Part shown: positions 1-43,774 of the stretch, piece by piece
Layout: each line of letters begins with the position of its first letter
Position numbering within the stretch: the first letter of the stretch is position 1
Assembly: GCA_049975385.1 (NCBI GenBank)
Contig: JBNGDO010000001.1
Location: forward strand, 2,600 to 66,599
Reading direction: 5' to 3'
Length of the DNA: 64,000 nt
Origin: Anaerolineae bacterium
GTDB lineage: Bacteria > Chloroflexota > Anaerolineae > B4-G1 > SLSP01
The notes under the pieces: generated by a model
Told to the model about the DNA's origin: nothing
Database searches by the model: none
The model's input: the letters and a program-made list of their open reading frames with translations, nothing else
Position numbers and translations under genes: made by a program

Positions 1-1541
1 ACGGTCGATTCGGTGGGGCCGTAGAAGTTCCACAGCGGGATGCCCCACGCCAGCACCTTCTGCGCCGGCGCGCGCGGCAGGGCCTCACCGCCGCAGCAGA
101 TCAAGCGCAGGGATAACGGGTCGGCAGTGTCGTAGAGATCGACCAGCCGTTGCAGCGCCGACGGCGTCTGGTTGACGATGGTGACGTGCTCTGCGCGCAG
201 CAGTTCGAGGAACGCTGTGGGCGACTGCGCGACGGCTTGCGGGACGATGACCAACCGGGCTTCACAGAGCAGGGGCGTCCAGAGTTCCCACACCGAGAAA
301 TCGAAGGCGTACGAGTGGAAGACCGTCCACACGTCGGCGGCGTTGAAGCCGAAGACCGGGCGGGTGGCTTCGATGAGGTTGATCACGCTCTGGTGAGCGA
401 TGGCGACGCCTTTGGGTTGGCCCGTCGAACCGGAGGTGTAGATGACGTAGGCCAGGTTGTGCCCCTGCGCGCCGCCATCCAGGTTCGTGTCCGCGTGGGC
501 GGCGATAGCGGGCCACGCGGCGTCCAGGCAGACGATGTGCGCGGGGGTGGGTGGGAGCGTGTCGACGAGCGCGTTCTCGGTCAATAGCACCGGCGTCTGC
601 GTGTCGGCGAGCATAAACGCCTGGCGCTCGGGCGGGTAAGCGGGGTCGATGGGGACGTAAGCGCCGCCGGCCTTGAGGATGCCGAGCATCCCGACGAGCA
701 TCGCCGTCGAGCGCGTGACGTCCATCGCTACGGGGACTTCCGGGCCGACGCCGAGCGCCCGCAGGTGCCGGGCCAATCGGTTGGCGCGGGCGTTCAACTC
801 GCGGTAGGTGAGCGTCTGCCGGGGCTTTCCCGGTTCAGCGCAGACCACGGCGATAGCCTCCGGCGTTCGCGCGGCCTGGCGCTCGAAGCGGCGGTGGATG
901 CACTGTCCGGTATAGCCGGTGTCAGTCGTGGTGTCATTCCAAGCGACGAGGATTTGGTGGCGTTCGGCTTCGGTCAACATGGGGAGGGATTTGAGGGATA
1001 AGTCCGGCGTGGTGACGAAGCCTTCTAGCAGTGTGAGCAGGTGCCCGGCCAACCGCGCGACGGCGGCGGCTTCGAAACGGTCGCCGGCGTAGTCGATGTG
1101 CAGGTGCAGCGCGTCATCGACGGTGATGGTGAAGGGGACGGCGGCGTGTGTGTCCTCCACGCGTGTGCCGAAGACGAGCAGTGTCTCGAGATGGGATAGC
1201 TCCGGCTGGTATGCAGTGGCCGAGTTGGCTTGCAGTGCTGTGAGCCAGGCGCGTGCTTTTTGCTCCGGTTGGATGGTTGTGTGTGTGAGTATGGGAGTTT
1301 GGGTGATATGTACCCCGAAGGCCACGTCTGTTTCGCCGCTGTAGCGGCTGAGGAGTAGCGCCCACGCGCCTTGGATGAGTGTCAGTATATCGAGGGTGTT
1401 CTGGCGGGCAAAGTCACGCAGCGCGGCGGCAAGTTCCGGTGTGGGCGCGACCGCGTAGACTGCGCGCGACGTCACCCCGCCGTTATCCGGCAGGGGTTTG
1501 GCGATAGACAGCGGCGTTGGCGCGGGGAATTCATCAGTCAT
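1..1541 (-). CDS. Non-ribosomal peptide synthetase-like protein, N-terminal part (degenerate condensation-like region + adenylation domain); C-terminus runs off the window start
   Basis: Reverse-complement translation from ATG 1541..1539 gives MTDEFPAPTPL... and shows adenylation core motifs LTYRELNARANRLARHL (A1), AYVIYTSGSTGQPKGV (A3), FDFSVWE (A4) and NFYGPTE (A5). A C-domain-like stretch TLDILTLIQGAWALLLSRYSGETDVAFG precedes them. There is no in-frame stop before position 1, which is why the ORF track does not list it. Confidence 0.8.
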   Translation of the reverse strand, partial: MTDEFPAPTPLSIAKPLPDNGGVTSRAVYAVAPTPELAAALRDFARQNTLDILTLIQGAWALLLSRYSGETDVAFGVHITQTPILTHTTIQPEQKARAWLTALQANSATAYQPELSHLETLLVFGTRVEDTHAAVPFTITVDDALHLHIDYAGDRFEAAAVARLAGHLLTLLEGFVTTPDLSLKSLPMLTEAERHQILVAWNDTTTDTGYTGQCIHRRFERQAARTPEAIAVVCAEPGKPRQTLTYRELNARANRLARHLRALGVGPEVPVAMDVTRSTAMLVGMLGILKAGGAYVPIDPAYPPERQAFMLADTQTPVLLTENALVDTLPPTPAHIVCLDAAWPAIAAHADTNLDGGAQGHNLAYVIYTSGSTGQPKGVAIAHQSVINLIEATRPVFGFNAADVWTVFHSYAFDFSVWELWTPLLCEARLVIVPQAVAQSPTAFLELLRAEHVTIVNQTPSALQRLVDLYDTADPLSLRLICCGGEALPRAPAQKVLAWGIPLWNFYGPTEST

Positions 1542-4500
1542 ATTGATCAAATAGCTTGTTAAGCTGCCGCGGGCGGGCGCGGGTGAGGGCAGCGATGCGG
1601 TCGTTGGATTCGCGGAGCCGCTCACTGAGGACGTTGATGAGCGCCAGCGACATCTCCGGGTTCTGACGCGCCAGGGCGATGAGGGGTTCGCGACGCAGGC
1701 GCAGCGTGAGCGTGTCCTGGATGGCGACGGCGGAGGTGGTGTGCGGGCTGTTATCGAAGAAGTTGGCCTCGCCGAAGTACGAGTGCGCCTCGATGGTTGC
1801 CAGCCGCGCGAAAGAACCGGTGCGCTTCTCCTGCTCGATACCGACGCGCCCGTTGACCACCACGTATAGTGCGCCGCCGGGATCATCGTTGTTGTAGATG
1901 CGCGTGTCTTCCTCGTACATTTCTTCCTCGCAGACGTTCGCCAGAATTTTGAGCTGGTCGATGGTCATCCCCTGGAAGAAGGGGACTTCTTTGAGGAAAA
2001 TGATCTTCTCAATGGCAGAAAGCATAAGGTCCTCCTTCATAAAACCGGTTTGAACGCCGTTTATCAATCGTTTGGCAATCTGGGCCGCGAGACGCACTTC
2101 CTCTTCCGGGTCTTTGAGCGCCGTCACCAGGAGTTCCTCAATCTGGGTGAGGGTGAGGGGGGGAGAGGGAGAGGGAGAGAGAGAGGAGGGGGGAGCGTCT
2201 AGCTTTGGAGTTTCGACGGCTGTGGTCTCGGCTGTTGCCGTTTCGGTTTTGGGGCCGTCGAGCGCGCCGAAGAGGTCGGCGGGGGGGCGACGGCGTGCGC
2301 GCGGCGCGGGCTCGGTGTCGGCGGGCGGCGCGTCAGGCTGGGCCGCCTCCGTCTTTGGCGCGTCGAGGGCGGCGAAGAGATCTTTCGGCGCGGCGCGGCG
2401 CCGGCGACGCCCTTCGGTTTCCGGTGCAGTGGGTGGTGACTCGGGACTCGAAGAGGCTTTGGGCGTGGGCGGGACGAGTGCCGCGCCGAGTTGCCCTAGC
2501 GCAAAGACCGTCATCGTGCGTACCCACGGATCTTCGGGAAGCGTGGCGAGCTTCTGGATGGCTTCGGCGGTATCCGGTGCCTCCATATCCCAGGTTTCCT
2601 TGCTGAGTGTCAAAAGCTTGCTCGTCGGGGTGTCCGGTTCGAAGAGTGGTGCAATCAACTCGGCGGTCTTGGGCGTGGTCAGCGATTCCAGAGCCTCGAC
2701 GGCATTCGCGCGCGTCCGGGAATTGTCGCTGCGTAGGGAATCGTTGATGATTTCTACGCTGTTCGGGTCCTGGATTGCAGAAAGCAGGTAGAAGATTTCC
2801 GTGGTGAGGCGTTGGCTTTGTTCACGCAGCGCGTTTTGCAGCACGGCGAAGCCCGGATGCGTGGCACAAGGTTCCAGAGCTTCGACCAGGCCGTAGTTAC
2901 CGTAGATGGCAAGCAGGTTGCCGGTGATGTTCGCGCCGACGATCAATGGCCCAAACTCCTTAGGGTTGATGCGGCTCAAGACGACGGCGGTCATTTTGCG
3001 CAGTTGTGCGTTTGGCGAATCGAGCTTGGGATGGATGACCGGGATGATCGTCTTGTCGAGTGCCACGAGTGTTGCGGCAGCGGTCTCACGGACTTGCGGG
3101 CTGGTGTCGGTGAGTGCATCGACGATCAGGGGATAGGTTTTGCGGCTGCCTACGCGTCCTAATATGACGAGAGCGGCCCGGCGCGTGCGTTCGACGGGGT
3201 CGTCGAGGCGAGCGCTGACTTTGGCCTCGAGTTCAGTCTTCACCACATCGTTGAGCGATGTCTTCTGCACAGCGGTTTCAATGGCCAGAGCGGCTTCGAG
3301 GCGAACCTCGTCGGCTGGATCATCCAGATAAGCCATCAACCGGTGGAGGGTTTGTTCGCTCTTGATCTGCCCTAGGATGCGGACGCCGTAAGCGCGGTAA
3401 TGGGCATTATCGCCGGTCAGGAGGGCTTCGAACGCATCCGCAGCAGGCTTGAGCGTGTATAGCTGGTCCGATTGCGCCAGGACCGAAAGGACCTGTCCAA
3501 GCACATTGATGTCGGGGTCGTTGACCATATTCGACATTTGGGTGAGGAATTGCGGATCGTTGGGCGCGGCAAGTTGTTGCAGTCCCACAATGGCGGACTG
3601 TCGGACCTGTCCGGAGGGGTCATTGGTAAAGTCGAGATACAGTTGGCGCACGGCATCGCCGCGTAGATCGGCGGCGGCAAGCACGTCGAGGATAGCGGCG
3701 CGGGTGTGGCTTTCGGGTGCGGCGTGGGCGGTCTGGCTCAGGATGGGGATAGCATCGCGCCCGCCGATTCTGCTAATGAGTTGCGCCATAAACACGGTGA
3801 GTTCGTGGCTGGTGCTGCTTTCGAGCTTCTCGCGTAGTTTGCTCAACGTTGCGGGATCGGCGACGGTTAACTCGGAAACACTTTGGGTCAGCAGGAAGGA
3901 GTAGTCCTCTTGTTCGAGCATCTTAACGAGCGCCTGTCCATACTGCCGGCGAACGATAAGTGCATTGGCGATGTAACCGATGGCGAGTGCGAGCGTTAAG
4001 GTAGGCAAGAACCATCGCAGTGCTACAAATGGTGGTAACAAGAGGATACTGCCGATAAACACACCGATGGGGGCGACGAGGCCGTCGATAAAGGCGTGCG
4101 CGCGTCCTTTAATGCGCAAGGGGACAGCGTTGTAGAGCAAACTGTTGATCTGATAGCCAGCGTTGCCATAGAAAGCGGTGCTATCGAAGTAGCCGAAGGC
4201 AGCCATTGGCAAACCGGGGAAGAACGCTAGGCCTGCGGAAATCGCTAGATTGCCGGCTGGGAAGATCAAATAGGCGTTGCCCACCCCAATCCAGCCGATG
4301 ATGCGGCTGAGCAAGAAGAGCTGGAAAGGCAGCATAATCAGGTTCGCCACGCCGGTTACGAGACCGTAGAAATTTGCCATCGCCTCGGTCGTCTGGAGTT
4401 TATCGACAATGATCACGCTGGTCTGATATCCGACAAAGGTGAGGAGAATCACGACGACAAGTGTGCCGGTGGCGATCCAGCGCAGGAAACGTGACTGTGT

Positions 4501-5211
4501 GACGTAATGGTACCCTTCACGTAACTCGTTGAGATATGAGATGCGGGTTTTTTCTGTTGTCTTGGCCTTGACGCCGGATAACCCGGCTGGAAGCGTATCT
4601 CCGGTGGACCTGATTATGCGCGGCATCACCCATGCTCCCAACGCCATCATCCCTAACATACTGAGCCACACGATGATGATACTGTTGGGCGACAGTACTT
4701 TGTTCAGAGACTCCATACTCAACCCGGCGATGATACTACCGATGCTGCCCGCTGTGCCCAGGACGGGCACGATACGCTTGGCCGCTCGTGTGTCGTAGAA
4801 GCCGTTGATGTAAGTGAACCAGTGCGCGGTGAGAATGTCGGTCAGTGGAACGTATATCAACAGATAGAGCAAGGGGTAGGCAACGCGTGTGAGTCCTATA
4901 TTGAGCAGACCAAAGCCAATGAGGATGCCGGTTCCACCGATGAGCAAGATGGCGATCAAAAGCTTGTGACTGGCGATGCGATCGGCGAACGCGGTGTAGA
5001 TAGCGACTGCGGGTATGGAAAGGATGGCTCTAACCATAAAGAACCAGGGCAGTCCCTTCACGCCTACTTGTTCCAGGAAGGCGGCTGCGACGATGGTCTC
5101 GCCCCAGACCGCGCCAAGCGTGACTGCCAGCAGCATCGCATAGAGCAGGAGCAGCCGCGGCCACTCTTCCGATCGAACGTTGAACAGCTTGTTGAGGAAT
5201 TGCACCATAAT
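1534..5211 (-). CDS. Multidomain membrane protein: N-terminal ~12-TM TLC (ATP/ADP-translocase-like)/MFS transporter domain + PBS-lyase-type HEAT repeats + disordered Pro/Arg-rich linker + C-terminal cyclic-nucleotide-binding (CAP-effector) domain
   Basis: Part of the 1261-aa ORF 1534..5319. The likely start is the internal ATG at 5211 (MVQFLNKLF...), which is preceded by AAGGAAGGTG. The N-terminus has hydrophobic TM helices. HEAT-like E..VR..A..AL repeats follow. The C-terminus (FFQGMTIDQLK...GEANFF...TAVAIQDTLTLRL) is a cNMP-binding fold. The stop TGA at 1536..1534 overlaps the next ATG at 1541. Confidence 0.7.
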   Translation of the reverse strand: MMVQFLNKLFNVRSEEWPRLLLLYAMLLAVTLGAVWGETIVAAAFLEQVGVKGLPWFFMVRAILSIPAVAIYTAFADRIASHKLLIAILLIGGTGILIGFGLLNIGLTRVAYPLLYLLIYVPLTDILTAHWFTYINGFYDTRAAKRIVPVLGTAGSIGSIIAGLSMESLNKVLSPNSIIIVWLSMLGMMALGAWVMPRIIRSTGDTLPAGLSGVKAKTTEKTRISYLNELREGYHYVTQSRFLRWIATGTLVVVILLTFVGYQTSVIIVDKLQTTEAMANFYGLVTGVANLIMLPFQLFLLSRIIGWIGVGNAYLIFPAGNLAISAGLAFFPGLPMAAFGYFDSTAFYGNAGYQINSLLYNAVPLRIKGRAHAFIDGLVAPIGVFIGSILLLPPFVALRWFLPTLTLALAIGYIANALIVRRQYGQALVKMLEQEDYSFLLTQSVSELTVADPATLSKLREKLESSTSHELTVFMAQLISRIGGRDAIPILSQTAHAAPESHTRAAILDVLAAADLRGDAVRQLYLDFTNDPSGQVRQSAIVGLQQLAAPNDPQFLTQMSNMVNDPDINVLGQVLSVLAQSDQLYTLKPAADAFEALLTGDNAHYRAYGVRILGQIKSEQTLHRLMAYLDDPADEVRLEAALAIETAVQKTSLNDVVKTELEAKVSARLDDPVERTRRAALVILGRVGSRKTYPLIVDALTDTSPQVRETAAATLVALDKTIIPVIHPKLDSPNAQLRKMTAVVLSRINPKEFGPLIVGANITGNLLAIYGNYGLVEALEPCATHPGFAVLQNALREQSQRLTTEIFYLLSAIQDPNSVEIINDSLRSDNSRTRANAVEALESLTTPKTAELIAPLFEPDTPTSKLLTLSKETWDMEAPDTAEAIQKLATLPEDPWVRTMTVFALGQLGAALVPPTPKASSSPESPPTAPETEGRRRRRAAPKDLFAALDAPKTEAAQPDAPPADTEPAPRARRRPPADLFGALDGPKTETATAETTAVETPKLDAPPSSLSPSPSPPLTLTQIEELLVTALKDPEEEVRLAAQIAKRLINGVQTGFMKEDLMLSAIEKIIFLKEVPFFQGMTIDQLKILANVCEEEMYEEDTRIYNNDDPGGALYVVVNGRVGIEQEKRTGSFARLATIEAHSYFGEANFFDNSPHTTSAVAIQDTLTLRLRREPLIALARQNPEMSLALINVLSERLRESNDRIAALTRARPRQLNKLFDQYD

Positions 5212-5473
5212 CTGCACCTTCCTTAAGGACGCATCGATTGCTATAAGATACTGTCGCTCAGTGTCAGCACAATCGGCCGATGTTGCTACATAATTCCGTT
5301 GACCTTGCTGAACTTTCACAAAGGCGATGACCTTATCATAGCACAGTTTAACTGCGTTAGGATAAAGTTTATGTAGCGGTTTTGTAGCAGTTGTGTTAGG
5401 AAATCACCGTTATGTGAACTTCGCGAAGGTGCACGGGCCTTGGGCTCGCATACTTTCGCAAATCGCGGCAACT

Positions 5474-8400
5474 TCAAAATTTCTCCGGAATGTGGCTCAA
5501 TTGAGGAACTTGGCCGGACTCTGTCAGAATCAATCCCACCCGCGCAGCATACGCGGCACGAATCTCCTGGTGCAGTAGGATGTTCTCCAGATAGGTCCGG
5601 CGGAAGTAGCTATCTGCGGGGATAAGCGCGTGTTTACGCGCCATTTCGTCATAGGCTCTACGGAGATATTTGGTTGCCTCTTCAGGTTGTTCGTTGGCTG
5701 CAAGGGCCTGGCTGTAGCGGAAGAGGATTTCCTCGCTCACGCACTCAGTAATTTGCACAAAACCGAACGTCTGGTAAAGCTCCAGCGCCTTCTGAGCGGT
5801 GTCTAGTGCGTTGTTCAGGTGCTCGTAGACTATGCCGGGCTTGGCGGTGGCGGCATCTTTGGCAAGCATTGCCAGTTTGAGGTGCGCGGCGGTGGCTTTG
5901 CACAGGGCCGCCATCTCATACTGCCGCGAGACCAGGGGGCTTTGAAGGGCAAGCTCTTGGACTTCTTCAGCCAGTTCCAGCGCCATGCGCAGGTGGGCTT
6001 CATCGCCGAGGGCGTTGTAGAGGATGGCCCAAACCAGTTTCAGGCTGGCAAGCCCGCGGTCCTGGACCGGCTCACCGATGTCGCGGATGCGCTCCAGGCT
6101 GGCGAGCGCTTCGGTGTACTGGTATTGCTCGCTTTGAATTTGGGCGATGTGGAACAGCGGGTACACTTCGTCGCGGGAGCCGATCAAGATGCGCTGGCAC
6201 TCTTCCAACAGCGCCAGACCGCCCTGGTAATCACCCAGGTAGATGCCCTGGATCCGCCCGCAGGCCTGCAACGCCTTGCTCTCATTGGGGCGGTGACCGA
6301 TTTCGCGGCTGATGTTAAGACGTTCCTGCTGGTATTCTGTCAGCAGGCGGTAGTAATCGCCGCTGCGTTCAAATTCCAATCCCAGCAGGTTGAGCAGCGA
6401 CATCTGGGTGATCTTGTCGTCGAGGCCCTGGCGCATCGCGAGTGCGGCCGCGGCCTCCAGGTACTCCATACTGAGCGAAGGCTCATCGCTGAAGGCAAAG
6501 ACCCCGCCCATACCGATGAGTAATCGCGCCTCAAAATGCTCGTCCTGCACCTGGCGGGCGAGTTCGAGGGCGCGCTCGGCCAGCGGCTGCCATTCGGGAT
6601 CGCTTAAGGCCAGACGATGGTTGACGATGGCGATGAGGCTTTCCATTTCGCGGCGTTGGTCGCCCAATTCCTGCGCCAGCGCGAGGGCCTGTTGCGCCAT
6701 CGGGATGCCGGCGTCGATTTCTTCTTTGCATTGGTAATCGGCCACGCCCGGCTGTTGGAGCAGCGCGTCGATGGTGAACGTGGGATCGTCGGCTAACTGC
6801 TCTGCCAGCGGCAGCAGCGCCTTGGCATCTTCCCACATCGCTTCGAATTGTCCCATAAGGTAGAAGACCGCGCGCCGCTCGTTGAGGACGCTGAAACGTT
6901 GTATGCGTATGGCGCGGCATTGATCTTCGTCGCTTGCTTTGTGCTCCAATGCGTCGAGGATTTCCAGGGCACGCGTGAACTGTTTGCCTGCTTCGGCGTT
7001 GGCGTAGACGTGCTTGGCGTGCGCAGCGCCCTTGAGAACATAATCCAATTCTTTGTCCGGCAGGCCGGCGTGCCGGAAGTGATAGGCCAAAGCGCCGTAG
7101 AACTGTGGAGAGGGTTCGGTGGCATCCGATTTACAGCAATGGCTTTCGATATACTCGGCAATGCGCAGGTGATAACTGGTTCGTTGGGTGTTGAGTAGAC
7201 GGTCGTAGGCCGCGTCGCGGATCAACGATGATCGGAAGACGTATTCGATGCCTAGCTCCGAAGCGCGCCCGCGCTCGCGGATCAACTGCGCGCGTTGCAA
7301 CGCCGTGAGGTGGGCCTTGACGCGCGCCGGGTGAGTTGCCAAGACTTCGATGATTTTCGACCAGAACACGGTGCCGACCACGGAAGCGATTTGCAGGATG
7401 TGTTGCTCTTCCGGCGTGAGCCGGTCGATGCTTGCCAGAAGTAAGTTCTGCAAGCTATCGGGCAGCGTGAGGGTGGTGACAGCCTGGGTGGTGCGCCAGC
7501 GACCATCCTCCGGCGCACGGGTTAAAATCCCCTCAAAAATCAGCGCGCGCACCAATTCCTGGATGTAATATGGGTTACCCTCGGCTTTGCTGATGATGAG
7601 GTCTTGTGTGGCTTCGGGGAGCACATCCGGCCCGATCAACTTCGCAATCATCTCCTGGCTCTGCTCGGCGGTAAGGGGGGCAAGCGTGAGGCTGGTCAGG
7701 CGATGCGGGTATTCAGTCTCGATGTAGTAGCGAAATTCCCAGATCTGCGAAGTGCGATCTGGCCGGAAGACAAATAGCCACAGCAAGTCAGTGTAATCGC
7801 AGAGTGGGAGGCAGTATTTGAGCAGGTCCAGCGACGTGGCGTCTACCCATTGCATATCGCTGAGGTTGATCACGAGCGGCCCCTGTTGTGTGAGCGCCTC
7901 GACCCAACTGCGCAGCGTGAGGAAGAATTGCTGGCGCAGGCTGTCGGCGTCGAGACGCCTGATCTGCTCGGCGTGGTCAGCTTCCAGTGGAAGTGACAGC
8001 AGCGTCGCCAGGTCGGGATAATACTCATCGGCATGATCGCCCCACAGCATCTCGGCTTGTTGGTAGAGACGGTCGCGCGTTTTCTCCTGCGGCTCGTCCG
8101 AACGGATACCGAGCCAGTTGCGTAGCATGTCTTGCCACACCGCATAGGGTTGCGACTGGGTGTAAGAGCGGCAGCGCCCGCGCAGCCATATGACGCCGAT
8201 CTCCGCATCTGCGGAGGGGGTGGGGTAGGTTGGCTGGCCGACCTCGGCGCCTTTGTCACGCGCTTCGGCCAAGAGCGCGTTTTGCCGGGCGAAATACTGG
8301 CGCACTTCATTGGTGAGCAGTGATTTGCCCATCCCATGTTCGCCCGTAAGGATGACAATGCCGCCAATGCCATCACTTAGGTCTTCGATGCAAGCTTTGA

Positions 8401-9382
8401 GACTGTCAACCTCTGCGTCGCGCCCGATGAGCGGGCTGGGTAGCTCATATTCGGGCTTTTCCAGGCTGACGTAGGGCGCAAGAGGCCGGTAGACAGCGAC
8501 GGGTGTGCTCACGCCCTTGACCTTGATCTCGCCGAGCGGTAGCCACTCGAACTGTGAGGTGGTGAGACGGAACGTGTTCTCACTCACCAGCACGGTGCCG
8601 GGTTCGGCGGCGGTTTCCATGCGCGCGGCAAGCGCGATGGCCTCGCCCATAGCCGTTTCTTCCCGGTACTGGCGGTCGTTGCCCACGCTGGTGACGATGA
8701 CCTCGCCCGTGTTGACGCCCACGCGCAGCGCCAGGCTGATGCCCTCGCGTTTTTCCAGGTCAGCGGCGAACGGTTGCAGTGCCGACTGCATCGCCAGGGC
8801 CGCCAGCACCGCGCGCTCCGGGTCGTCCTCGTGCGCCGTCGTCGTCCCGAAGAAGGCAACCAGGCCATCCCCACGGAATTGATCGACTTTGCCGCCGAAA
8901 CGGTAGATCTCCGTTTCCAGGATCTGGAGGACGCGGTTCATCATCTTGACCCACGCCTCGGTGCCGACCTGTTCCATCAGATCGGTGGAACCTTTGACGT
9001 CCGCGAGGATGATCGTTGCCAGGCGGCGTTCCCCTTCGAGTGGAGCTAGATCGCCGGGTTCTGCTGGGCCGGTCGATGCGCTAGAAAGCGCGCTGGGAGG
9101 CGTGCCAGGAGGCGCACCTTCCGGCACACTTTCTCGGATGCTTTCCGGTGCGCCAGCAAATGCCTGATCTGGTATGCGTTCTGGGGGAACCTCCTGTGTC
9201 CGCAGCGGAATAACGTCGAATGCGGAAGCGGCGCTGAGGGGATTGCCGCACTCGCTGCAAAAGCGATGGGCGCGCGGATTTTTCGTCCCGCAGGCCGGAC
9301 AGACCAGCCGGAGACGCGCGCCGCACATCCCACAGAATTTATGTCGTGCGCGAACCTTGAAGCCGCACTCAGGACACTTCAT
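5474..9382 (-). CDS. Double zinc-ribbon + class III adenylate/guanylate cyclase + STAND (AAA_16/NB-ARC-like) ATPase + TPR-repeat protein
   Basis: The N-terminus has four CxxC pairs (CPECG...CGMCG...CPACG...CSECG). The cyclase domain reads RRLATIILADVKGSTDLMEQ...FRGDGLVAFFG...VGVNTGEVIV. The P-loop is GIVILTGEHGMGKS. The C-terminal ~600 aa are TPR-like helical repeats. Confidence 0.85.
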   Translation of the reverse strand: MKCPECGFKVRARHKFCGMCGARLRLVCPACGTKNPRAHRFCSECGNPLSAASAFDVIPLRTQEVPPERIPDQAFAGAPESIRESVPEGAPPGTPPSALSSASTGPAEPGDLAPLEGERRLATIILADVKGSTDLMEQVGTEAWVKMMNRVLQILETEIYRFGGKVDQFRGDGLVAFFGTTTAHEDDPERAVLAALAMQSALQPFAADLEKREGISLALRVGVNTGEVIVTSVGNDRQYREETAMGEAIALAARMETAAEPGTVLVSENTFRLTTSQFEWLPLGEIKVKGVSTPVAVYRPLAPYVSLEKPEYELPSPLIGRDAEVDSLKACIEDLSDGIGGIVILTGEHGMGKSLLTNEVRQYFARQNALLAEARDKGAEVGQPTYPTPSADAEIGVIWLRGRCRSYTQSQPYAVWQDMLRNWLGIRSDEPQEKTRDRLYQQAEMLWGDHADEYYPDLATLLSLPLEADHAEQIRRLDADSLRQQFFLTLRSWVEALTQQGPLVINLSDMQWVDATSLDLLKYCLPLCDYTDLLWLFVFRPDRTSQIWEFRYYIETEYPHRLTSLTLAPLTAEQSQEMIAKLIGPDVLPEATQDLIISKAEGNPYYIQELVRALIFEGILTRAPEDGRWRTTQAVTTLTLPDSLQNLLLASIDRLTPEEQHILQIASVVGTVFWSKIIEVLATHPARVKAHLTALQRAQLIRERGRASELGIEYVFRSSLIRDAAYDRLLNTQRTSYHLRIAEYIESHCCKSDATEPSPQFYGALAYHFRHAGLPDKELDYVLKGAAHAKHVYANAEAGKQFTRALEILDALEHKASDEDQCRAIRIQRFSVLNERRAVFYLMGQFEAMWEDAKALLPLAEQLADDPTFTIDALLQQPGVADYQCKEEIDAGIPMAQQALALAQELGDQRREMESLIAIVNHRLALSDPEWQPLAERALELARQVQDEHFEARLLIGMGGVFAFSDEPSLSMEYLEAAAALAMRQGLDDKITQMSLLNLLGLEFERSGDYYRLLTEYQQERLNISREIGHRPNESKALQACGRIQGIYLGDYQGGLALLEECQRILIGSRDEVYPLFHIAQIQSEQYQYTEALASLERIRDIGEPVQDRGLASLKLVWAILYNALGDEAHLRMALELAEEVQELALQSPLVSRQYEMAALCKATAAHLKLAMLAKDAATAKPGIVYEHLNNALDTAQKALELYQTFGFVQITECVSEEILFRYSQALAANEQPEEATKYLRRAYDEMARKHALIPADSYFRRTYLENILLHQEIRAAYAARVGLILTESGQVPQLSHIPEKF

Positions 9383-9432
9383 GAATCATGATGAATCATG
9401 AATCATGAATCATGAATCATGATTCATGATTT
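9381..9432. repeat. Tandem heptanucleotide repeat (ATGAATC/ATTCATG units, ~7 copies) filling the whole 49-nt spacer between the cNMP-binding gene and the cyclase gene
   Basis: Reads atgaatcatgatgaatcatgaatcatgaatcatgaatcatgattcatgattta, with direct 7-nt periodicity. On the minus strand it provides in-frame TGA stops two codons upstream of the cyclase ATG. Confidence 0.9.
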
Positions 9433-9868
9433 AGTAATAGGCGTTCAGGGCCATACGGAAACGTTTGGCGAGTTCGACCATGATATCCACGGCCATTTCG
9501 CCATCCCGCCTCAGCACGCCGAGGAAGTTCTCGCGGGGGAGAATGAGGCACTCGGTCGATTCGGTGGCGATAACCGATGCGGTGCGCGGGCCGTTGTCGA
9601 GCAGGGCTAACTCGCCAAAGAAGTCCCCAGGCCCAAAGGTGTTGACTACCGCCTTGCTGCCGTCGGCCTTCTCGCGCACGGCCTCGGCTTTTCCGGATGC
9701 AATGACGAAGAATCCGTACCCATCGCGGCCCTGCGGCACAATCACCTCGCCGGGAGCGCACGTACGATCGACGAAAATCCGCGCTAGGTTTTGGATTTGG
9801 CGCTTCTTCAAATTTTCAAAGAGGGGGACTTTACAGAGAATCTCGATTGCTCGTTCCAGGTCTGCCAT
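9431..9868 (-). CDS. Standalone cyclic-nucleotide-binding domain protein (145 aa)
   Basis: MADLERAIEILCKVPLFENL...GDFFGELALLDNGPRTASVIATE is the canonical CAP/cNMP-binding beta-barrel signature with no fused output domain. An AT-rich promoter-like region lies upstream (9890..9960). Confidence 0.85.
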   Translation of the reverse strand: MADLERAIEILCKVPLFENLKKRQIQNLARIFVDRTCAPGEVIVPQGRDGYGFFVIASGKAEAVREKADGSKAVVNTFGPGDFFGELALLDNGPRTASVIATESTECLILPRENFLGVLRRDGEMAVDIMVELAKRFRMALNAYY

Positions 9869-10041
9869 AATGATTCCTCCTTAAGCTGGGCTGGTAACCT
9901 ATTGTTTTATTATAGTTCAATGATGAAAGTGTGCAACCGGGAATACGTTTAAAGACGCTTGCGCGCCACCTCGTGTCGAGTGCGCCGGAATTGGTTCAGT
10001 GCATTGCCAATTGGAAGAAGGTGCCCCACACTATTAGCCTG

Positions 10042-10653
10042 TCACAGTCCCAGGTGTTGCATATCGTTCAATCTGTTCAACACCGGTCCAATACGCTGAA
10101 ATTCAACCTCTGTTAGCGAAGTGTTGCCCAGCGCGAACTGCCAGTAATCGCCCAGGGACTTATGCAGCAGCAGGCACAGCAGCGCCCGGATCGCGCCGCC
10201 GTGCGAGGCGATGAGCACCGTCTGCTCGGGATGCGCGCGCCGGATGTCATCAAGAGCCGCGTGGACCCGCGCTGCGAGCTGCGCCAACGTCTCGCCGCCC
10301 GGCGGAGCGTGGTGGACGCGGTCGGCATTCCACCAGGCTACCGTCTCCGGGAACGCGGCCTCCATCTGCGGATACGTCAACCCGTGCCATTCCCCAAAGC
10401 TCATCTCCCGCCAGCGCGGATCGAGGCGCACGTCGAGCGTGTGATGCCGCGCAATCGCGTGTGCCGTCTCCGCCGCCCGGCAGAGGTCGCTGGCGTAGAT
10501 CGCGTCCAGCGGCGTCATCGCCAACCGCCCGGCGATGGCCTCCGCCTGCCGCAGTCCCGCCGCGCTCAAGGGTACGTCGGTCTGTCCCTGATAGCGTCCT
10601 TCGGCGTTCCACGCTGTCTCGCCATGGCGGACTAAGAATAATCGTAAACTCAT
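10042..10653 (-). CDS. Histidine phosphatase family protein (phosphoglycerate mutase-like / alpha-ribazole phosphatase-like)
   Basis: The N-terminal RHGET.WN motif (LFLVRHGETAWN) and a later catalytic H (ASHGGAIRAL) match histidine phosphatases. Length is 203 aa. Confidence 0.8.
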   Translation of the reverse strand: MSLRLFLVRHGETAWNAEGRYQGQTDVPLSAAGLRQAEAIAGRLAMTPLDAIYASDLCRAAETAHAIARHHTLDVRLDPRWREMSFGEWHGLTYPQMEAAFPETVAWWNADRVHHAPPGGETLAQLAARVHAALDDIRRAHPEQTVLIASHGGAIRALLCLLLHKSLGDYWQFALGNTSLTEVEFQRIGPVLNRLNDMQHLGL

Positions 10654-10919
10654 ATCAATCCTTCGAAAACATAAGCGGATTATACATAAAATCTGGCGAA
10701 TGAGTATTTTCGCCGGAAGCGGATTGCCAATTTCAGATAAGCGTGTTATATAAACGCTAGTACAGCAAGGCGCAAGTTCTTTCCCGCATAGGGGTACTCA
10801 GAGGGGATCGGCAGATTCCCGACGTCTGCATATAGCCGGTGATCTGGCGATCCCCTTGAAGCTATAAATCAGGATGGGATTTACGCCGCGCCGTAACATG
10901 CATTTTTTAGGAGGCAATC

Positions 10920-12263
10920 ATGACCGGTATCATCATTCAATGGGTTCGTACTGCGCAGGGCGCCGGAGAACGTCTGAAGCATCAGATCCCCCTTCGGTTT
11001 GTAGATCAGCCTGCGCCTGACCTGGCGTCTGTTACGGTGGACGCCGGCACGCGTTTCCAAACCCTCGAAGGGTTCGGCGGCGCGTTCACCGAGGCGGCAG
11101 CGGTCACGTTGTACAAGATGCCGCCGGAGCAGCAGGCCGAAATCCTCAAGGCGTACTTCGATCCCCAGGCGGGACACGGCTACACGCTTTGCCGGACGCA
11201 TATCAACAGTTGCGACTTCTCGCTGGGTAACTACGCTTACGACGAGGTGGATGGCGACGTGGAACTCGTGCATTTCTCCATCGACCGCGACCGGCAAGCG
11301 TTGATGCCCATGATCAAGGCAGCGATGGACGTTGCGGGTGGGGGGCTCAAGCTCTTCGCCTCGCCGTGGAGCCCGCCCGCGTGGATGAAGACCAACGGCG
11401 AGATGAACCACGGCGGCAAGCTCAAGCCGGAATACCGCGACGCCTGGGCGCGCTACTACTGCCGCTACATTCACGAGTACGAGAAAGCGGGGATTCCCAT
11501 CTGGGGCCTGAGCGTGCAGAATGAGCCATTGGCAGTCCAGACCTGGGATTCCTGCATCTACACGGGCGAGGAGGAGCGCGATTTCGTCCGCGATTACCTC
11601 GGCCCGGCGCTGGAACGCGAAGGGCTGGCGGACGTCAACCTCATCATCTGGGACCACAACCGCGACCTGCTCTACGAACGCGCCAAAATCGTGCTGGACG
11701 ATCCGGCGGCGGCGCGCTACGTGTGGGGGACAGGCTTCCACTGGTACGTCGTCGATGCGTTTGACAACGTGCAGCGGGTGCACGATGCCTATCCCGATAA
11801 GCACCTGCTCTTCACCGAAGGTTGCCAGGAAGGCGGGCCGCATCTTGGCGAGTGGGCCGTGGGTGAGCGCTACGCCCGCTCGATGCTCCACGACCTCAAC
11901 CGCTGGACGGTGGGGTGGGTGGATTGGAACCTGGTGCTGGACGAGATCGGCGGGCCGAACCACGTGGGCAACTATTGCAGCGCGCCCATCATCGCCGACA
12001 CGCGCACAGGCGAAGTGCTCTACCAGTATTCCTACGACTACATCGGCCACTTCTCGCGCTACATCCGCCCCGGCGCGCAGCGCATCATCGCCGCGCCGAC
12101 GTGCGACGAATTGGAAACGACGGCGTTCGTCAATCCTGACGGGCAGATCGCCGTCGTCGTGCTCAACCGCACGGAGAAGGATGTGCCCTTCGCGCTCAAG
12201 TTCGCCGGGCAAGTCGCCGTCACCGACAGTCCGGCGCACTCGATCCAGACGTATTGCTGGTGA
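10920..12263 (+). CDS. Glycoside hydrolase family 30 (glucosylceramidase-like O-glycosyl hydrolase)
   Basis: FGGAFTEAAA, SPWSPPAWMK and SVQNEP are GH30 catalytic-region motifs. The RBS is aggagg, 6 nt upstream of the ATG. Confidence 0.8.
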   Translation: MTGIIIQWVRTAQGAGERLKHQIPLRFVDQPAPDLASVTVDAGTRFQTLEGFGGAFTEAAAVTLYKMPPEQQAEILKAYFDPQAGHGYTLCRTHINSCDFSLGNYAYDEVDGDVELVHFSIDRDRQALMPMIKAAMDVAGGGLKLFASPWSPPAWMKTNGEMNHGGKLKPEYRDAWARYYCRYIHEYEKAGIPIWGLSVQNEPLAVQTWDSCIYTGEEERDFVRDYLGPALEREGLADVNLIIWDHNRDLLYERAKIVLDDPAAARYVWGTGFHWYVVDAFDNVQRVHDAYPDKHLLFTEGCQEGGPHLGEWAVGERYARSMLHDLNRWTVGWVDWNLVLDEIGGPNHVGNYCSAPIIADTRTGEVLYQYSYDYIGHFSRYIRPGAQRIIAAPTCDELETTAFVNPDGQIAVVVLNRTEKDVPFALKFAGQVAVTDSPAHSIQTYCW

Positions 12264-17790: not shown

Positions 17791-18222
17791 CTACATAATG
17801 TCCAGCACGCGGCTGAAGCGGGCCGCCAACTCTTGCAGCACGGCGACAGCCATATCTGCATCTTCACGGAGCAGGCCGAGGAAATCCCATCGTGTCAGGA
17901 CCAGGCAGCACGTTGGCTCGGTCGCCACGACCGAGGCAGTGCGCAGCCGCTCGGTCAGCAGCGCCATCTCGCCGAAGAAATCGCCTACTTCGAGTTCGTG
18001 TAGGGTAACCCCTGTCCCATCCAACTGTTCGCGGATAACCTCGACCTGGCCTTCTATGATGACGAAAAATCCTTCACCGCCTTTGCCTTGCGTGACGATT
18101 GTCTCACCTGGATCATACGTGCGCTCGACGAAGCGTTTCCCCACTTGTTCGATCTGCCGCCGGTTCAGCCCGCGGAACAGCGGCGTGCGTTGCAAGACGA
18201 TCAATCTATCAGCGACAGCCAT
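17791..18222 (-). CDS. Standalone cyclic-nucleotide-binding domain protein (143 aa), paralog of 9431..9868
   Basis: LFRGLNRRQIEQVGK...GDFFGEMALLTERLRTASVVATE has the same domain-only architecture as the first copy. Confidence 0.85.
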   Translation of the reverse strand: MAVADRLIVLQRTPLFRGLNRRQIEQVGKRFVERTYDPGETIVTQGKGGEGFFVIIEGQVEVIREQLDGTGVTLHELEVGDFFGEMALLTERLRTASVVATEPTCCLVLTRWDFLGLLREDADMAVAVLQELAARFSRVLDIM

Positions 18223-18223
18223 A

Positions 18224-19270
18224 TCACACCCCCTTCAGTTTTAGCTCTTCGGCGCGATGACACGCCACGAAGTGATCCGGCTTGAGTTCGCGGAATTCCG
18301 GCGTCTCTATTTCGCATCTTTCTATAGCATAGCGGCACCGGGGATGGAAGTAACAGCCTGACGGTGGGTTGGAAGGATCGGCTACGTCACCCTGCATGAT
18401 GATGCGCTCGGATTTGTACAGCGGGTCGGGCTTCGGCACCGCCGACATTAGTGCCTCGGTATAGGGATGCAACGGGGCGTTGTAGAGCGCGTCGGACTCG
18501 GCCATCTCAGCAATCTTGCCGACGTACATCACCGCGACGCGATCGGAGATGTGCTGCACGACGCTGAGGTCGTGAGCAACGAAGACAAACGCGAGGTTGA
18601 AGTCACTCTGCAAGTCCTGCAACAGATTCAGCGTTTGTGCCTGGATGGAGACATCCAGCGCTGAAACCGGTTCGTCGCAGAAGATGATCTTGGGATTCAG
18701 CGATAACGCGCGCGCGATGCCGATGCGCTGGCGCTGCCCGCCGGAGAACTCGTGAGGATAGCGCCGGATGTGCTCGCGGCGCAGCCCCACCCGTTCCAGC
18801 AGGTTGATCACCGTATCTTCCATTTCCTTACCGACCTTCATCCCATGAATTACCATCGGCTCCGAAACGATATCGAAGACCGACATCCGAGGATTCAGCG
18901 AGTTGACGGGATCCTGAAACACCATCGAAATCTCTCGCCTGACGCGTTTCATCTGGTCTTTGCTAAGATCGAAGAGATTGACAACCTCCTCGGTGTTGCC
19001 AGGCGAGAGAGCGTCGGTTTTGTAATACGCGGCACCGCCGGTAGGTTCGTAGAGGCGGATTACCGTCCGGCTGGCTGTGGTCTTCCCGCAGCCACTCTCC
19101 CCTACGAGACCCAGCGTTTCACCTCTGCGGAGGTAGAAACTGACATCGTCCACGGCCTTTACATTGCCCACGACCTTTCTAAGGAGTCCCTTCTGGATGG
19201 GGAACCACTTCTTCAGTCCCTGCACATCCAATAGAATCGTGTCATCGTTAGTTATCATGCGTTCAGCCAT
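18224..19270 (-). CDS. Oligopeptide/dipeptide-type ABC transporter ATP-binding protein (OppF/DppF-like)
   Basis: Walker A GESGCGKTT, signature FSGGQRQR, and the C-terminal oligopeptide-ABC extension CYFHPRC. Confidence 0.85.
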   Translation of the reverse strand: MAERMITNDDTILLDVQGLKKWFPIQKGLLRKVVGNVKAVDDVSFYLRRGETLGLVGESGCGKTTASRTVIRLYEPTGGAAYYKTDALSPGNTEEVVNLFDLSKDQMKRVRREISMVFQDPVNSLNPRMSVFDIVSEPMVIHGMKVGKEMEDTVINLLERVGLRREHIRRYPHEFSGGQRQRIGIARALSLNPKIIFCDEPVSALDVSIQAQTLNLLQDLQSDFNLAFVFVAHDLSVVQHISDRVAVMYVGKIAEMAESDALYNAPLHPYTEALMSAVPKPDPLYKSERIIMQGDVADPSNPPSGCYFHPRCRYAIERCEIETPEFRELKPDHFVACHRAEELKLKGV

Positions 19271-19284
19271 GTTTGTTCTACCTC

Positions 19285-20352
19285 CTATACATTCTCATAA
19301 AGCAAGCAGCGCGCCCAGTGATCAGGCTCCACCTCAACCCAACTCGGAGCGATCCGGTCGCACTTGCCCGGCATGAATGAGGGACAGCGAGGGTGGAAGA
19401 CGCATCCGGAGGGGAGATGGAAGGGATCGGGCACCATGCCCTTGATGGAAGCCAGGCGCTCACTGCTGCGCTTGCCCACTTTCGGGATGGACTCGAGCAG
19501 CGCGCGCGTATACGGGTGCTTGGGTTCGTAGAAAACCTTGACTGTGCTGGCTTTTTCCACCTGCTTGCCCATATACATCACGACGATCTCGTTAGCCATC
19601 TCTGCGACCACGCCCAGGTTATGGGTGATGAACATGATGGCCATGTCCACTGTCTCTTGCAACTCACGCATCAGGTCGAGGATCTGTGCCTCGATGGAGA
19701 CGTCGAGCGCTGTCGTCGGCTCATCGGCGATTAGCATGAACGGCTCACATGAGAGCGCGATAGCGACCATCACACGCTGCCGCTGCCCGCCGGAGAGCTG
19801 ATGTGGATAGGCATCCACTCGCTCCTCCGGCTTTGGGATCCCCACCTTGCGCAACATATCGATGGAAATCTGGCGAGCCTCTTCCTTTGTCACAGGCCGG
19901 TACTTCGTAATCTTTTCAGCCATCTGTTCCCCGACCGGAATCCGGCGGTGAAGATCTAGCGCCTCGCCGATCAAGGTTCCCGTGGTGTACACGGGCGTCA
20001 GGGAGCTCATCGGCTCCTGAAAGATCATGGCAAATTCGCCACCCCGGATCGAGCGAATCGTGCTGCCGTCCGGATCGAGGTTTGTGATATCTACGATCTC
20101 TGGGGGTTTGCTTGGGTCAAACTTGTCTCGACGATGATAAAGGATCTTGCCGCTCACAATCTTCCCCGGCTTGGGGATCATCCGCATCGCGGCTTTAGCT
20201 GTGACCGATTTCCCACAGCCGCTCTCGCCGATCACGCCTAGCGTTTCCCCTCGGTTTACAGTATAGGTCACGCCATCCACAGCGTGGACCGTCCCGTCGC
20301 GCACTTCGAAGTCCACCCGCACGTCTTTGATTTCAAGTAACGGTTCAGCCAT
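19285..20352 (-). CDS. Oligopeptide/dipeptide-type ABC transporter ATP-binding protein (OppD/DppD-like)
   Basis: Walker A GESGCGKS, signature LSGGQRQR and C-terminal CVFHPRC. Start chosen at MAEPLLEIKD (ATG 20352). The longer ORF to 20520 overlaps the permease gene. Confidence 0.85.
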   Translation of the reverse strand: MAEPLLEIKDVRVDFEVRDGTVHAVDGVTYTVNRGETLGVIGESGCGKSVTAKAAMRMIPKPGKIVSGKILYHRRDKFDPSKPPEIVDITNLDPDGSTIRSIRGGEFAMIFQEPMSSLTPVYTTGTLIGEALDLHRRIPVGEQMAEKITKYRPVTKEEARQISIDMLRKVGIPKPEERVDAYPHQLSGGQRQRVMVAIALSCEPFMLIADEPTTALDVSIEAQILDLMRELQETVDMAIMFITHNLGVVAEMANEIVVMYMGKQVEKASTVKVFYEPKHPYTRALLESIPKVGKRSSERLASIKGMVPDPFHLPSGCVFHPRCPSFMPGKCDRIAPSWVEVEPDHWARCLLYENV

Positions 20353-20363
20353 TGTTCTCTCCT

Positions 20364-21527: not shown

Positions 21528-21542
21528 TGTCTCATCCTCCTT

Positions 21543-22529: not shown

Positions 22530-22657
22530 TCCTACCTCCTTCCTGCGGTTGAGAATACGTTAACCGACGAAAAACGCTCAGCACGCACAGTCGGGCAATG
22601 CGGGCACGATTAGGAAATCGCAGCTATAATTAGATGTTTGTGCGCGCAAATGAAAAT

Positions 22658-22690
22658 CGTGGAGGAGGGAAGTAGCTTCCCCCCTCCACA
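22658..22690 (-). terminator. Hairpin between the binding-protein gene and the permease genes (possible attenuating terminator)
   Basis: Stem gtggaggagggaag / cttcccccctccac, followed on the minus strand by a T-rich stretch. Confidence 0.5.
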
Positions 22691-22698
22691 ATGCTTAC

Positions 22699-24720: not shown

Positions 24721-24872
24721 TACAAAACCTCCTTCGAGTTTACTATGTGAAATTGGGAAATGGGTTTCATTGTCGTTGTGTATATTTGTATGGTACACCT
24801 CCTTAATTGAACTTGAACCGAAAACATACTTAGATTTACACCCTCCAAAACGGTTTGTCGTTGGCGGAGTGT

Positions 24873-42385: not shown

Positions 42386-42430
42386 TCAGCTGGCCACCAA
42401 CAGACGCTTGTCGTATTTGAGAGCAACTAC

Positions 42431-42469
42431 AGGTGCGACGCACTTTCCGAAGTGCGTCGCACCTTTTAT
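42431..42469 (+). terminator. Rho-independent terminator after vapBC
   Basis: Stem aggtgcgacgcactt / agtgcgtcgcacct with loop tccga, followed by TTTTA. Confidence 0.8.
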
Positions 42470-42581
42470 GTCAGTAGTCTATTTTGGGGTATTTGATTAT
42501 AATGAAGGAGTGGGGTGGAATCCACTCCTTCATCTGTTATACGACAGGTAAGTGCGGATTAGCTGCTAGGAGAAATGACTA

Positions 42582-43373: not shown

Positions 43374-43415
43374 TACACCAAACTCAAGTAGTCATTACCG
43401 TATATAGGTGGGAAT

Positions 43416-43745: not shown

Positions 43746-43774
43746 CCGGAACATCTCACACGAAAGGACACACA

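Follow-up and report, generated by a model that had tools for sequence, protein, structure and literature searches.

Gene order in relatives points to two conserved modules, a cyclase with a CNB-only partner and a transporter with a coupled biosynthetic cassette, at an Anaerolineae locus

The DNA analyzed here (the window) is a 64,000-nt stretch of contig JBNGDO010000001.1 from an Anaerolineae metagenome-assembled genome (MAG). At its left end lie four genes, g1, g2, g3 and the first gene of a non-ribosomal peptide synthetase (NRPS), which the open reading frame (ORF) listing and the translations place co-directionally on the minus strand. A sequence-only reading had described these four genes and their domain architectures, and both descriptions hold, the genes as ORFs at the coordinates below and the domains by Pfam matches, with the membrane part of g3 recognized through a profile of its family. 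The same reading took the genes for a single operon encoding a self-contained circuit based on a cyclic nucleoside monophosphate (cNMP). Gene order in relatives indicates instead that they are two independently conserved modules, g1 plus g2 and g3 plus the NRPS (or another cassette), with a conserved promoter-like gap between them. Both modules appear to be parts of a wider signalling and secondary-metabolite locus that is characteristic of filamentous Chloroflexota. The genes and their parts are the following:

9868-9431, minus strand: g1, 145 aa, a cyclic nucleotide-binding (CNB) domain alone
9382-5474, minus strand: g2, 1302 aa, zinc ribbon / class III cyclase / STAND / TPR
9236-9376, minus strand: double zinc ribbon of g2 (Pfam, E 6e-11)
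8483-9040, minus strand: class III cyclase domain, or cyclase homology domain (CHD), of g2 (Guanylate_cyc PF00211, E 4e-18)
7808-8434, minus strand: STAND/AAA_16 NTPase of g2 (Pfam AAA_16, E 4e-20, 73.5 bits)
8321-8344, minus strand: Walker A motif GEHGMGKS of g2, residues 347-354, seen in the sequence
5477-6892, minus strand: TPR-like C-terminal region of g2, ~470 residues, helical
5209-5473, minus strand: g2-g3 intergenic region, 265 nt
5208-1534, minus strand: g3, 1224 aa, NTT-type transporter / HEAT / CNB fusion
3799-5208, minus strand: NTT/MFS-type membrane domain of g3 (hydropathy, ~11-12 hydrophobic segments)
2329-3771, minus strand: HEAT repeats of g3 (Pfam HEAT_2, E 3e-30, 104.7 bits, four stretches)
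2257-2409, minus strand: disordered Pro/Ala-rich linker of g3 with two RRR-x-DLFxALD motifs, seen in the sequence
1660-1920, minus strand: C-terminal CNB domain of g3 (Pfam cNMP_binding, E 2e-14)
1729-1776, minus strand: CNB cassette of g3, FGEANFFDNSPHTTSA, with His where the phosphate-binding Arg is expected
1541-1, minus strand: 5' part of the first NRPS gene, open at the left window edge

The genes are unevenly spaced. Those of each proposed module are close together (48 nt between g1 and g2, -8 nt between g3 and the NRPS), whereas 265 nt separate g2 from g3, so that the tight packing described earlier applies to the outer junctions and fails at the middle one. The g3/NRPS overlap had been given as 3 nt. 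The sequence found at this junction is ATGACTGATGA, and the overlap is 8 nt because the NRPS frame opens at the first ATG (1541-1539) and g3 ends with the TGA at 1536-1534; a second ATG at 1534, which would shorten the overlap to 1 nt, was rejected as out of frame. The start of g3 was placed at the ATG at 5208, which has the ribosome-binding site AAGGAAGG 8 nt upstream and at which the homologues begin at the same residue. These two features led us to reject an alternative GTG start at 5319. The arrangement is not a random one: it is found again in eight orthologous loci, and dozens more share parts of it.

To follow the genes through Chloroflexota, relatives were scanned with g3 as the anchor and one genome per species, which gave 75 loci, and eight further contigs were added. 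The g3 loci come from Anaerolineae, Caldilineaceae, Thermoflexales, Ardenticatenaceae, Chloroflexaceae, Roseiflexaceae, others, and Ca. Vecturithrix. All relatives are metagenome bins, their ORFs are simple picks that were clustered and onto which the domains of the window were mapped, and the enrichment counts carry no phylogenetic correction. Among the 57 loci with at least 3 kb of downstream sequence, an NRPS was the next same-strand gene after g3 in 26 and was present in 30, and 16 of the 26 direct junctions had gaps of no more than 6 nt or overlapped. The proposed coupling of the NRPS to g3 is thus confirmed as a conserved, often overlapping pairing. Loci without an NRPS carry another small cassette in its place, either a 270-aa protein or a GNAT protein with a methyltransferase, and the cassette is followed by one constant set of genes, which encode an SBP_bac_5 (SBP5) lipoprotein, a CHASE3-HAMP-GAF membrane protein and a MinD/ParA-like ATPase.

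A second regularity lies on the other side of g3. The 2.6 kb upstream of it hold the ends of 19 CHD genes, all but one on its strand, compared with six CHD genes in the other ~684 kb of flanking sequence, an approximately 11-fold enrichment of cyclase genes immediately upstream of g3. They have three architectures: the zinc ribbon-single CHD-STAND-TPR form of the window (eight loci), a tandem CHD-CHD-STAND-TPR form and a short tandem-CHD form. Of the 12 loci with an upstream cyclase, 11 had an NRPS, as did 14 of the 31 lacking such a cyclase (Fisher p=0.0065, without correction for phylogeny). Within the clade of the window, the adjacency of g2 and g3 persists at protein identities of 75-91%, and in seven of eight loci (the window and six of seven relatives) the gene immediately before the cyclase, in the same orientation, is a g1 ortholog. 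Of five contexts of more distant g2 homologues (54-59% identical), four have a CNB gene of 144 aa immediately before the cyclase and in the same orientation, and two of these have a second CNB gene nearby. Because this pair is kept in contexts that have neither g3 nor an NRPS, the CNB-only gene and the cyclase form a module of their own. Linkage in relatives, by which the sequence-only reading had proposed to be judged, therefore held in both halves: the genes are not scattered, and the g1-g2 and g3-NRPS pairings are each conserved.

The spacer between the two modules contains one further feature:

~5335-5400, minus strand: clade-conserved element, from an alignment of eight orthologous intergenic regions

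This element consists of direct repeats, GCTACAnAAC/GCYACAYAAAC, followed ~30 nt on by the extended -10-like sequence TGTGCTATGAT. In the window the repeats read GCTACAAAAC and GCTACATAAAC, 12 nt apart, and are followed by CTTTATCCTAAC and, ~20 nt later, by TGTGCTATGAT. Outside this position upstream of g3 the motif was not seen; there it occurs in the window and in seven to eight close relatives. Its restriction to the g2-g3 spacer fits a separate promoter or operator for g3 and the NRPS, and the element may be a promoter combined with a binding site for a regulator that recognizes direct repeats. A generic promoter/terminator scan returned no more than expected by chance and did not flag the element, and an Rfam search of window positions 1-10700 at E values up to 1 gave no matches.

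The part of the NRPS inside the window encodes the C-terminal part of a condensation (C) domain and an AMP-binding, or adenylation (A), domain (4e-74; Pfam/NCBIfam). Orthologous clusters in relatives contain three genes of 853, 1086 and 1500 aa, with the organization (C*)-A-T, C-A-T and C-A-T plus a 400-aa terminal domain, where T denotes thiolation. Taking the window part and the orthologues together, condensation, adenylation and thiolation domains are found in modular order. The NRPSs that follow g3 are true multimodular enzymes, one of which opens with a formyltransferase and another with a full starter C domain. A close relative of the window, locus L083 (g3 83% identical), provides a complete co-directional array. 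It begins with a zinc-ribbon cyclase, g3, the 853-, 1086- and 1500-aa NRPS genes and an SBP5 peptide-binding lipoprotein, continues with a CHASE3-HAMP-GAF membrane sensor, a MinD/ParA-like ATPase, a 71-aa zinc-ribbon protein and a winged-helix protein, and closes with a PrsW protease and a second STAND cyclase with tandem CHDs. In this second cyclase CHD1 has D, K and D and CHD2 has T, N and R, a split like that of sAC-type enzymes, and by sequence the protein clusters with the cyclases that precede g3 in other lineages. Because the array of L083 is complete, the four genes of the window can be read as the right-hand end of a ~30-kb locus bracketed by cyclases. As L083 makes plain, the system as a whole is much larger than four genes.

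Several observations concern the biosynthetic cassettes themselves. The terminal NRPS protein has a tail of ~400 aa after its thiolation domain (L083:13241-14500; also the tails L012:13869-18464 and L014:16863-21425). This tail has no Pfam match, matches 9e4x/9e4s, deposited as 'Amino acid adenylation domain protein', at E 1e-104, and weakly matches the N-terminal part of the aminotransferase PigE (4ppm). A ~270-aa family with many invariant Trp residues takes the NRPS position directly after g3 in L009:13666-14478, L036:13341-14165 and six others, and in other loci that position is held by the GNAT and methyltransferase genes. A ~430-aa Cys/His-rich family also occurs beside g3, downstream of it in L056 (13237-14535) and upstream in L045:7426-9986, as two tandem copies, and in L065:5320-6588. 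The alternative cassette proteins c8 (270 aa) and c28 (432 aa) gave no match in Pfam and no PDB profile match.

g1 has cNMP_binding (PF00027; 85.5 bits, E 2.4e-24) as its sole Pfam domain. Its phosphate-binding cassette, FGELALLDNGPRTASV (9572-9619), is canonical, with the Gly-Glu and the Arg present, and its best solved relatives are the CNB domains of PKG and PKA. An Arg-Thr pair such as that in the g1 cassette hints at cGMP, although it is not diagnostic. The window contains a second gene of this kind, next to a peptide importer:

17797-18222, minus strand: CNB2, second CNB-only gene, 141 aa (tblastn and Pfam)
18224-24798, minus strand: Opp-type peptide ABC importer operon with SBP5, two permeases and two oligo_HPY ATPases

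CNB2 is 51% identical to g1, has the canonical cassette FGEMALLTERLRTASV and starts 1 nt past the stop codon of the last ATPase gene of the importer operon. In the relative L001, the CNB2 ortholog lies immediately upstream of the g1 ortholog. Because the two orthologs adjoin there, CNB2 probably belongs to the cNMP module of g1 and g2. The genes at 10.0-17.7 kb, which part CNB2 from g1 in the window and do not do so in L001, include a histidine phosphatase, GH30, a methyltransferase, an OYE reductase, a Glucosamine_iso-type protein and an HMGL-like protein. Opp ATPase genes are also close to the CNB-cyclase pair in L080 and L082.

g2 combines a double zinc ribbon with a single CHD that scores 66 bits against the Guanylate_cyc cut-off of 21.9. 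Behind the CHD come an AAA_16 P-loop with a Walker A motif and then a repeat region, the make-up of a STAND NTPase with a TPR sensor; the repeats were detected by a weak TPR_12 match (1e-3) and by a PADLOC TPR model (5e-10). The nearest solved catalytic domain is that of P. aeruginosa CyaB 3r5g (E 8e-26, 94 bits). The two nearest solved chains deposited under other names match less well: 8jsf, deposited as cytidylate cyclase, at 1e-6, and 7r65, deposited merely as adenylate/guanylate cyclase and which we take to be a PycC, at 9e-4. In the alignment with CyaB, the six catalytic positions (two metal, two substrate and two transition-state) read D/Q/D/T/A/R in g2 and D/K/D/T/N/R in CyaB. The metal aspartates of g2, D127 (ILADVKG) and D172 (FRGDG), align with the Asp pair of CyaB. 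Its substrate pair is Gln169 and Thr243, of which the Thr is as in the class IIIb enzyme CyaB and the Gln replaces the Lys, and g2 thus lacks the canonical pairs (Lys/Asp-or-Thr for ATP; Glu/Cys-or-Ser for GTP). At the transition-state positions the Arg is kept, and Ala stands in for the Asn (Ala or Thr across the family). Of the catalytic residues, whose absence the sequence-only reading would have counted against itself, the metal Asp pair and the Arg are accordingly retained, with Lys exchanged for Gln and Asn for Ala. Its caution about specificity was also well placed, as whether the product is a purine or a pyrimidine nucleotide cannot be read from the Gln/Thr pair.

The altered site is a fixed property of the family. 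Among the matches listed, which are g2 homologues of 51-100% identity, each of the 119 cyclase domains aligned shows D-Q-D-T-[A/T]-R; four of the aligned sequences are cut off before the first Asp. The entry P0121, from an Anaerolineae MAG contig and named 'AAA family ATPase [Anaerolineae bacterium]', is 100% identical to g2. Because both metal Asp residues and the Arg are invariant, and the Gln/Thr pair is fixed in all homologues examined, the site seems to be under selection as a working one, and the invariant metal ligands and Arg together with the conserved CNB partner argue for the CHD of g2 being a working enzyme. With two of the six canonical cyclase residues substituted, however, its activity and nucleotide specificity are unproven. 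The mycobacterial cyclase Rv0386 is active with Gln at the Lys position. XC_0250 of Xanthomonas, which has a TPR domain and an adjacent CNB effector, shows guanylate cyclase activity even though its Asn/Arg positions hold Leu/Ala (PMC3770947), and Rv1900c is a second published active cyclase without the Asn. Because such enzymes have been published, absence of the Asn lowers the expected activity of g2 and does not remove it. Taken together, the alignments appear to define a large group of cyclases, a subfamily that shares one fixed, non-canonical site (D-Q-D-T-A/T-R) and is paired with a CNB-only protein of its own.

g3 is a single polypeptide with a membrane domain, HEAT repeats and a C-terminal CNB domain. 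The membrane domain of the window protein alone had no Pfam match, whereas a profile built from 15 family members matched only the solved NTT ADP/ATP carriers 9j3n/9j3j (E 1.6e-10 and 3e-10), and among 15 relatives compared with Pfam three match TLC and nine match MFS_1. Because the family profile finds NTT structures, and HEAT repeats and a C-terminal cyclic nucleotide-binding domain (cNBD) follow in the same chain, g3 can be placed in the NTT-HEAT-cNBD family. Full-length homologues, 45-91% identical, are abundant in Chloroflexota metagenome bins. The proposed role of g3 as a membrane cNMP receptor draws support from its CNB match (53.7 bits against a cut-off of 27.5) and is weakened by the His at the phosphate-binding Arg position. 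This position is Arg in 41, His in 14, Tyr in 2, Gln in 1 and Thr in 1 of the g3 family loci, and Arg in 93 and His in 24 of the g3-family protein matches. In the clade of the window, g3 may therefore bind cNMP weakly or differently.

Other features of the g3 family were noted in passing. The linker between the HEAT repeats and the CNB domain carries the motif copies RRRRRAAPKDLFAALD and RARRRPPADLFGALD, and since R-x-RR-x4-DL-x2-AL is seen twice in the family consensus, this appears to be a conserved linear motif. Seven loci from several Anaerolineales lineages (L038, L049, L052, L053, L055, L057 and L060) have an extra CNB directly before the NTT domain, either as a separate gene of ~163 aa or fused to it, and this extra CNB is closer to the C-terminal CNB of g3 than to g1; in L063 and L027 an extra CNB comes after the g3 homolog instead. 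Such separate and fused copies match the fusion/fission lability noted by Major et al. (PMC5381601). Full g3 homologues were also found outside Chloroflexota bins, in L018 and L037 (Ca. Vecturithrix / bacterium UASB270) and in L052 (a bin labelled Propionivibrio). The Vecturithrix homologues keep MinD-like, NRPS and SBP5 neighbours, which suggests that the genes moved horizontally between filamentous bacteria. The Propionivibrio contig is a 5-kb piece that may have been assigned to the wrong bin.

From the domain content, residue states, gene order and conserved pairings we infer the following picture. The first module, g1 with g2, would be a cyclic-nucleotide generator with its own soluble receptor. 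A ligand sensed by the TPR/STAND part of g2 would lead to NTP-dependent oligomerization, by which the single CHDs could form active dimers, and the resulting cNMP would be bound by the CNB-only protein or proteins. The second module would have its own conserved promoter and would consist of an MFS-fold NTT-type carrier with a cytoplasmic HEAT scaffold and CNB domain, translationally coupled to a three-module NRPS. The cNMP of the flanking STAND cyclases would control the transporter through its CNB/HEAT tail, perhaps also through the small CNB proteins, and g3 would handle what the neighbouring cassette makes, with export of the non-ribosomal peptide as the simplest case. We hold this overall picture, a cNMP-controlled transporter that handles the cassette product, with moderate confidence, and have far more confidence in the anatomy than in the transport substrate.

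A number of observations weigh against it. As many as 17 of the 43 informative g3 loci have no cyclase or NRPS within 10 kb, and the distant g2 contexts (54-59% identity, n=5) have neither g3 nor an NRPS downstream. g2 lacks the canonical Lys and Asn and may be a weak or inactive cyclase. The g3 CNB domain of the window clade carries His in place of the phosphate-binding Arg, a substitution that lowers affinity in well-studied CNB domains. The left part of the cluster is outside the window and is deduced from relatives, its end from L083. A gap of 265 nt with a promoter-like element of its own parts g2 from g3, so the juxtaposition could reflect regulatory independence and not a single circuit. 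Finally, the NTT family is known for nucleotide exchange and not for peptide export (PMC5381601).

Some of these points would be explained if the modules were neighbours by accident, with g1-g2 a self-contained unit whose targets lie elsewhere (e.g. the Opp-linked CNB2) and which happens to sit beside an unrelated transporter-NRPS unit. The 54-59% identical g2 homologues do keep the CNB and cyclase genes with pyruvate phosphate dikinase, PMT_2 or glycosidase genes downstream, g3 does have its own conserved promoter-like region, and its CNB domain lacks the Arg. Accidental adjacency sits poorly, however, with the recurrence of cyclases of three architectures at the same spot upstream of g3 in many families, with the STAND cyclase at each end of the co-directional array of L083, and with the persistence of the g2-g3 neighbourhood across the window clade at 75-91% protein identity. 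We regard it as the strongest of the alternatives and still as unlikely.

An improbable alternative changes the cargo: g3 would be a nucleotide carrier, for ATP/ADP exchange or for cNMP export or import, under the control of its CNB domain, and the NRPS linkage would reflect co-regulation. The sole solved relatives of the membrane domain are the NTT ADP/ATP carriers, three of the 15 family members match Pfam TLC, a carrier of nucleotides would be economical beside nucleotide cyclases, and the published hypothesis for NTT-HEAT-cNBD proteins is a cAMP-tuned uptake of ATP (PMC5381601). Set against this are the nine of 15 members that score as generic MFS_1 and the biosynthetic cassette, of one kind or another, that always lies directly after g3 and is often translationally coupled to it, an arrangement typical of exporter-biosynthesis pairs.

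About equally doubtful is the idea that g2 is a pseudo-cyclase, its CHD serving as a dimerization or nucleotide-binding module of a STAND scaffold and the cNMP coming from the tandem cyclase or from elsewhere. Since the tandem cyclase could supply the cNMP, this idea is compatible with a cNMP-controlled transporter. It is in keeping with the exchange of Lys for Gln and of Asn for Ala/Thr throughout the g2 family and with the more canonical residues of the tandem cyclase in the L083 cluster. The invariance of both metal Asp residues and the Arg over 51-100% identity argues against it, as do the canonical CNB receptor gene kept beside g2 and the activity of XC_0250 and Rv1900c without the Asn and of Rv0386 with Gln in the Lys position.

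A Pycsar/CBASS-like defence system, to which the sequence-only reading had drawn an analogy and in which infection would trigger cNMP synthesis and CNB effectors would kill or arrest the cell, is hardly credible and was rejected: although g2 matches PADLOC PycC profiles (best 1e-16), g1 and g3 match the CNB part of PycTIR and effector profiles, and the logic of a cyclase plus a CNB protein is shared, the effector-profile matches span the CNB domain only and the genes contain no TIR, pore or nuclease domain; g3 has a 12-segment transporter and HEAT repeats in place of a short pore module; the best PycC match (58.9 bits) is below that of the generic Pfam cyclase and the CyaB match far exceeds those to 8jsf and 7r65; no CD-NTase (cGAS/DncV-like) domain was found in any of the genes with Pfam or PADLOC; and the neighbours are stable across several Chloroflexota orders in a housekeeping-like context, not patchy in defence islands.

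The favored picture of a cNMP-controlled transporter can be extended, as a long shot, to the entire locus, which would then serve peptide-based signalling between cells (or at the level of the filament), with a cyclic nucleotide as internal messenger. The NRPS or an alternative small cassette could make a signal molecule, which the cNMP-gated NTT-HEAT-cNBD transporter could release. The SBP5 lipoprotein and the CHASE3-HAMP-GAF protein could sense it outside, and/or the Opp importer could re-import it. The TPR sensors of the STAND cyclases could then read the signal and make cNMP, which could feed back through the CNB proteins, with the MinD-like ATPases, the winged-helix protein and PrsW as outputs. 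If true, this would be the first function for the NTT-HEAT-cNBD family and the first non-ribosomal-peptide/cNMP signalling loop to be described.

Two features of the window lie apart from these modules. A 452-aa minus-strand ORF (10881-12239) without a family match is antisense to a clear GH30 glycosidase gene (10920-12263, plus strand) and is almost certainly a spurious high-GC shadow ORF. The GC content, ~0.58-0.62 elsewhere, dips to 0.50 at 42001-44000, around a 263-aa ORF (42582-43373, plus strand).

Each part of the locus comes from a known family: class III cyclase, STAND NTPase, CNB domain, NTT-HEAT-cNBD and NRPS. Because these parts are ordinary signalling domains, what makes the finding worthwhile is the conserved way in which they are wired together, and no new type of molecule or mechanism is revealed. 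Our literature searches found no description of the wiring of NTT-HEAT-cNBD proteins to STAND cyclases, a biosynthetic cassette and the SBP5/CHASE3-HAMP-GAF/MinD set, and none of a D-Q-D-T-A/T-R cyclase subfamily with a CNB-only partner. Two NCBIfam families, TIGR03903 ('TOMM system kinase/cyclase fusion protein') and TIGR03896 (named 'bacteriocin-type transport-associated protein'), are precedents by annotation for a STAND-type cyclase and CNB proteins beside genes that make and export peptide natural products. The match of g2 to TIGR03903 covers the STAND part (5.5e-69), with a score (233 bits) far below the cut-off of 705.75; g2 has no kinase domain, and the product here would be non-ribosomal and not a ribosomal TOMM peptide. 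The TIGR03896 score is likewise far below its cut-off (27 against 161 bits). The TOMM paper of Haft (2010) does not discuss cyclases.

In architecture, the closest relatives of g2 are the soluble adenylyl cyclase sAC (ADCY10) and mycobacterial Rv0386, Rv1358 and Rv2488c, in which one or more CHDs are followed by a P-loop STAND NTPase and TPRs. The likeness to sAC extends to the tandem-CHD cyclases found next to g3 in other lineages, in which CHD1 supplies two Asp of the catalytic set and CHD2 the Asn and the Arg. g2 differs from the sAC/Rv0386 types in having a single CHD after a double zinc ribbon, no LuxR-type DNA-binding output and the D/Q/D/T/A/R site. From CyaB 3r5g, with which it has the second-position Thr, both metal Asp residues and the Arg in common, it differs by Gln and Ala in place of Lys and Asn. 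The closest functional precedent for the first module is the XC_0250/XC_0249 cGMP pathway of Xanthomonas campestris (An et al. 2013, EMBO J, PMC3770947). There too a class III cyclase with a TPR-containing domain, active without the canonical Asn, is encoded next to a CNB receptor. Unlike g1, which is CNB-only, XC_0249 couples its CNB domain to a GGDEF output, and XC_0250 has no zinc ribbon and no reported STAND NTPase, has Ala at the substrate positions where g2 has Gln/Thr, and has no transporter or NRPS neighbour (PMC3770947).

For the second module the comparison is with the NTT-HEAT-cNBD fusions described by Major et al. (2017, Genome Biol Evol, PMC5381601), which are widespread (Chloroflexota, cyanobacteria, Chlamydia and oomycetes), of which no member has been characterized and to which no function has been assigned since. 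g3 shares with them its NTT/TLC-type membrane domain, HEAT repeats and C-terminal cNBD, and some of its relatives carry the CNB as a separate adjacent gene, in line with the lability reported there. It departs from them in the His at the phosphate-binding Arg position, and that survey, which sampled two Chloroflexi sequences, made no link to cyclases, an NRPS or SBP5/CHASE3-HAMP-GAF/MinD genes (PMC5381601). The loci compared here thus give the family its first genomic context, with STAND-type cyclases on one or both sides, a coupled cassette that is mostly an NRPS and a fixed set of sensor genes. They recast g3 from a transporter without a role into a testable hypothesis, namely the cNMP-controlled handling of a secondary metabolite or signal.

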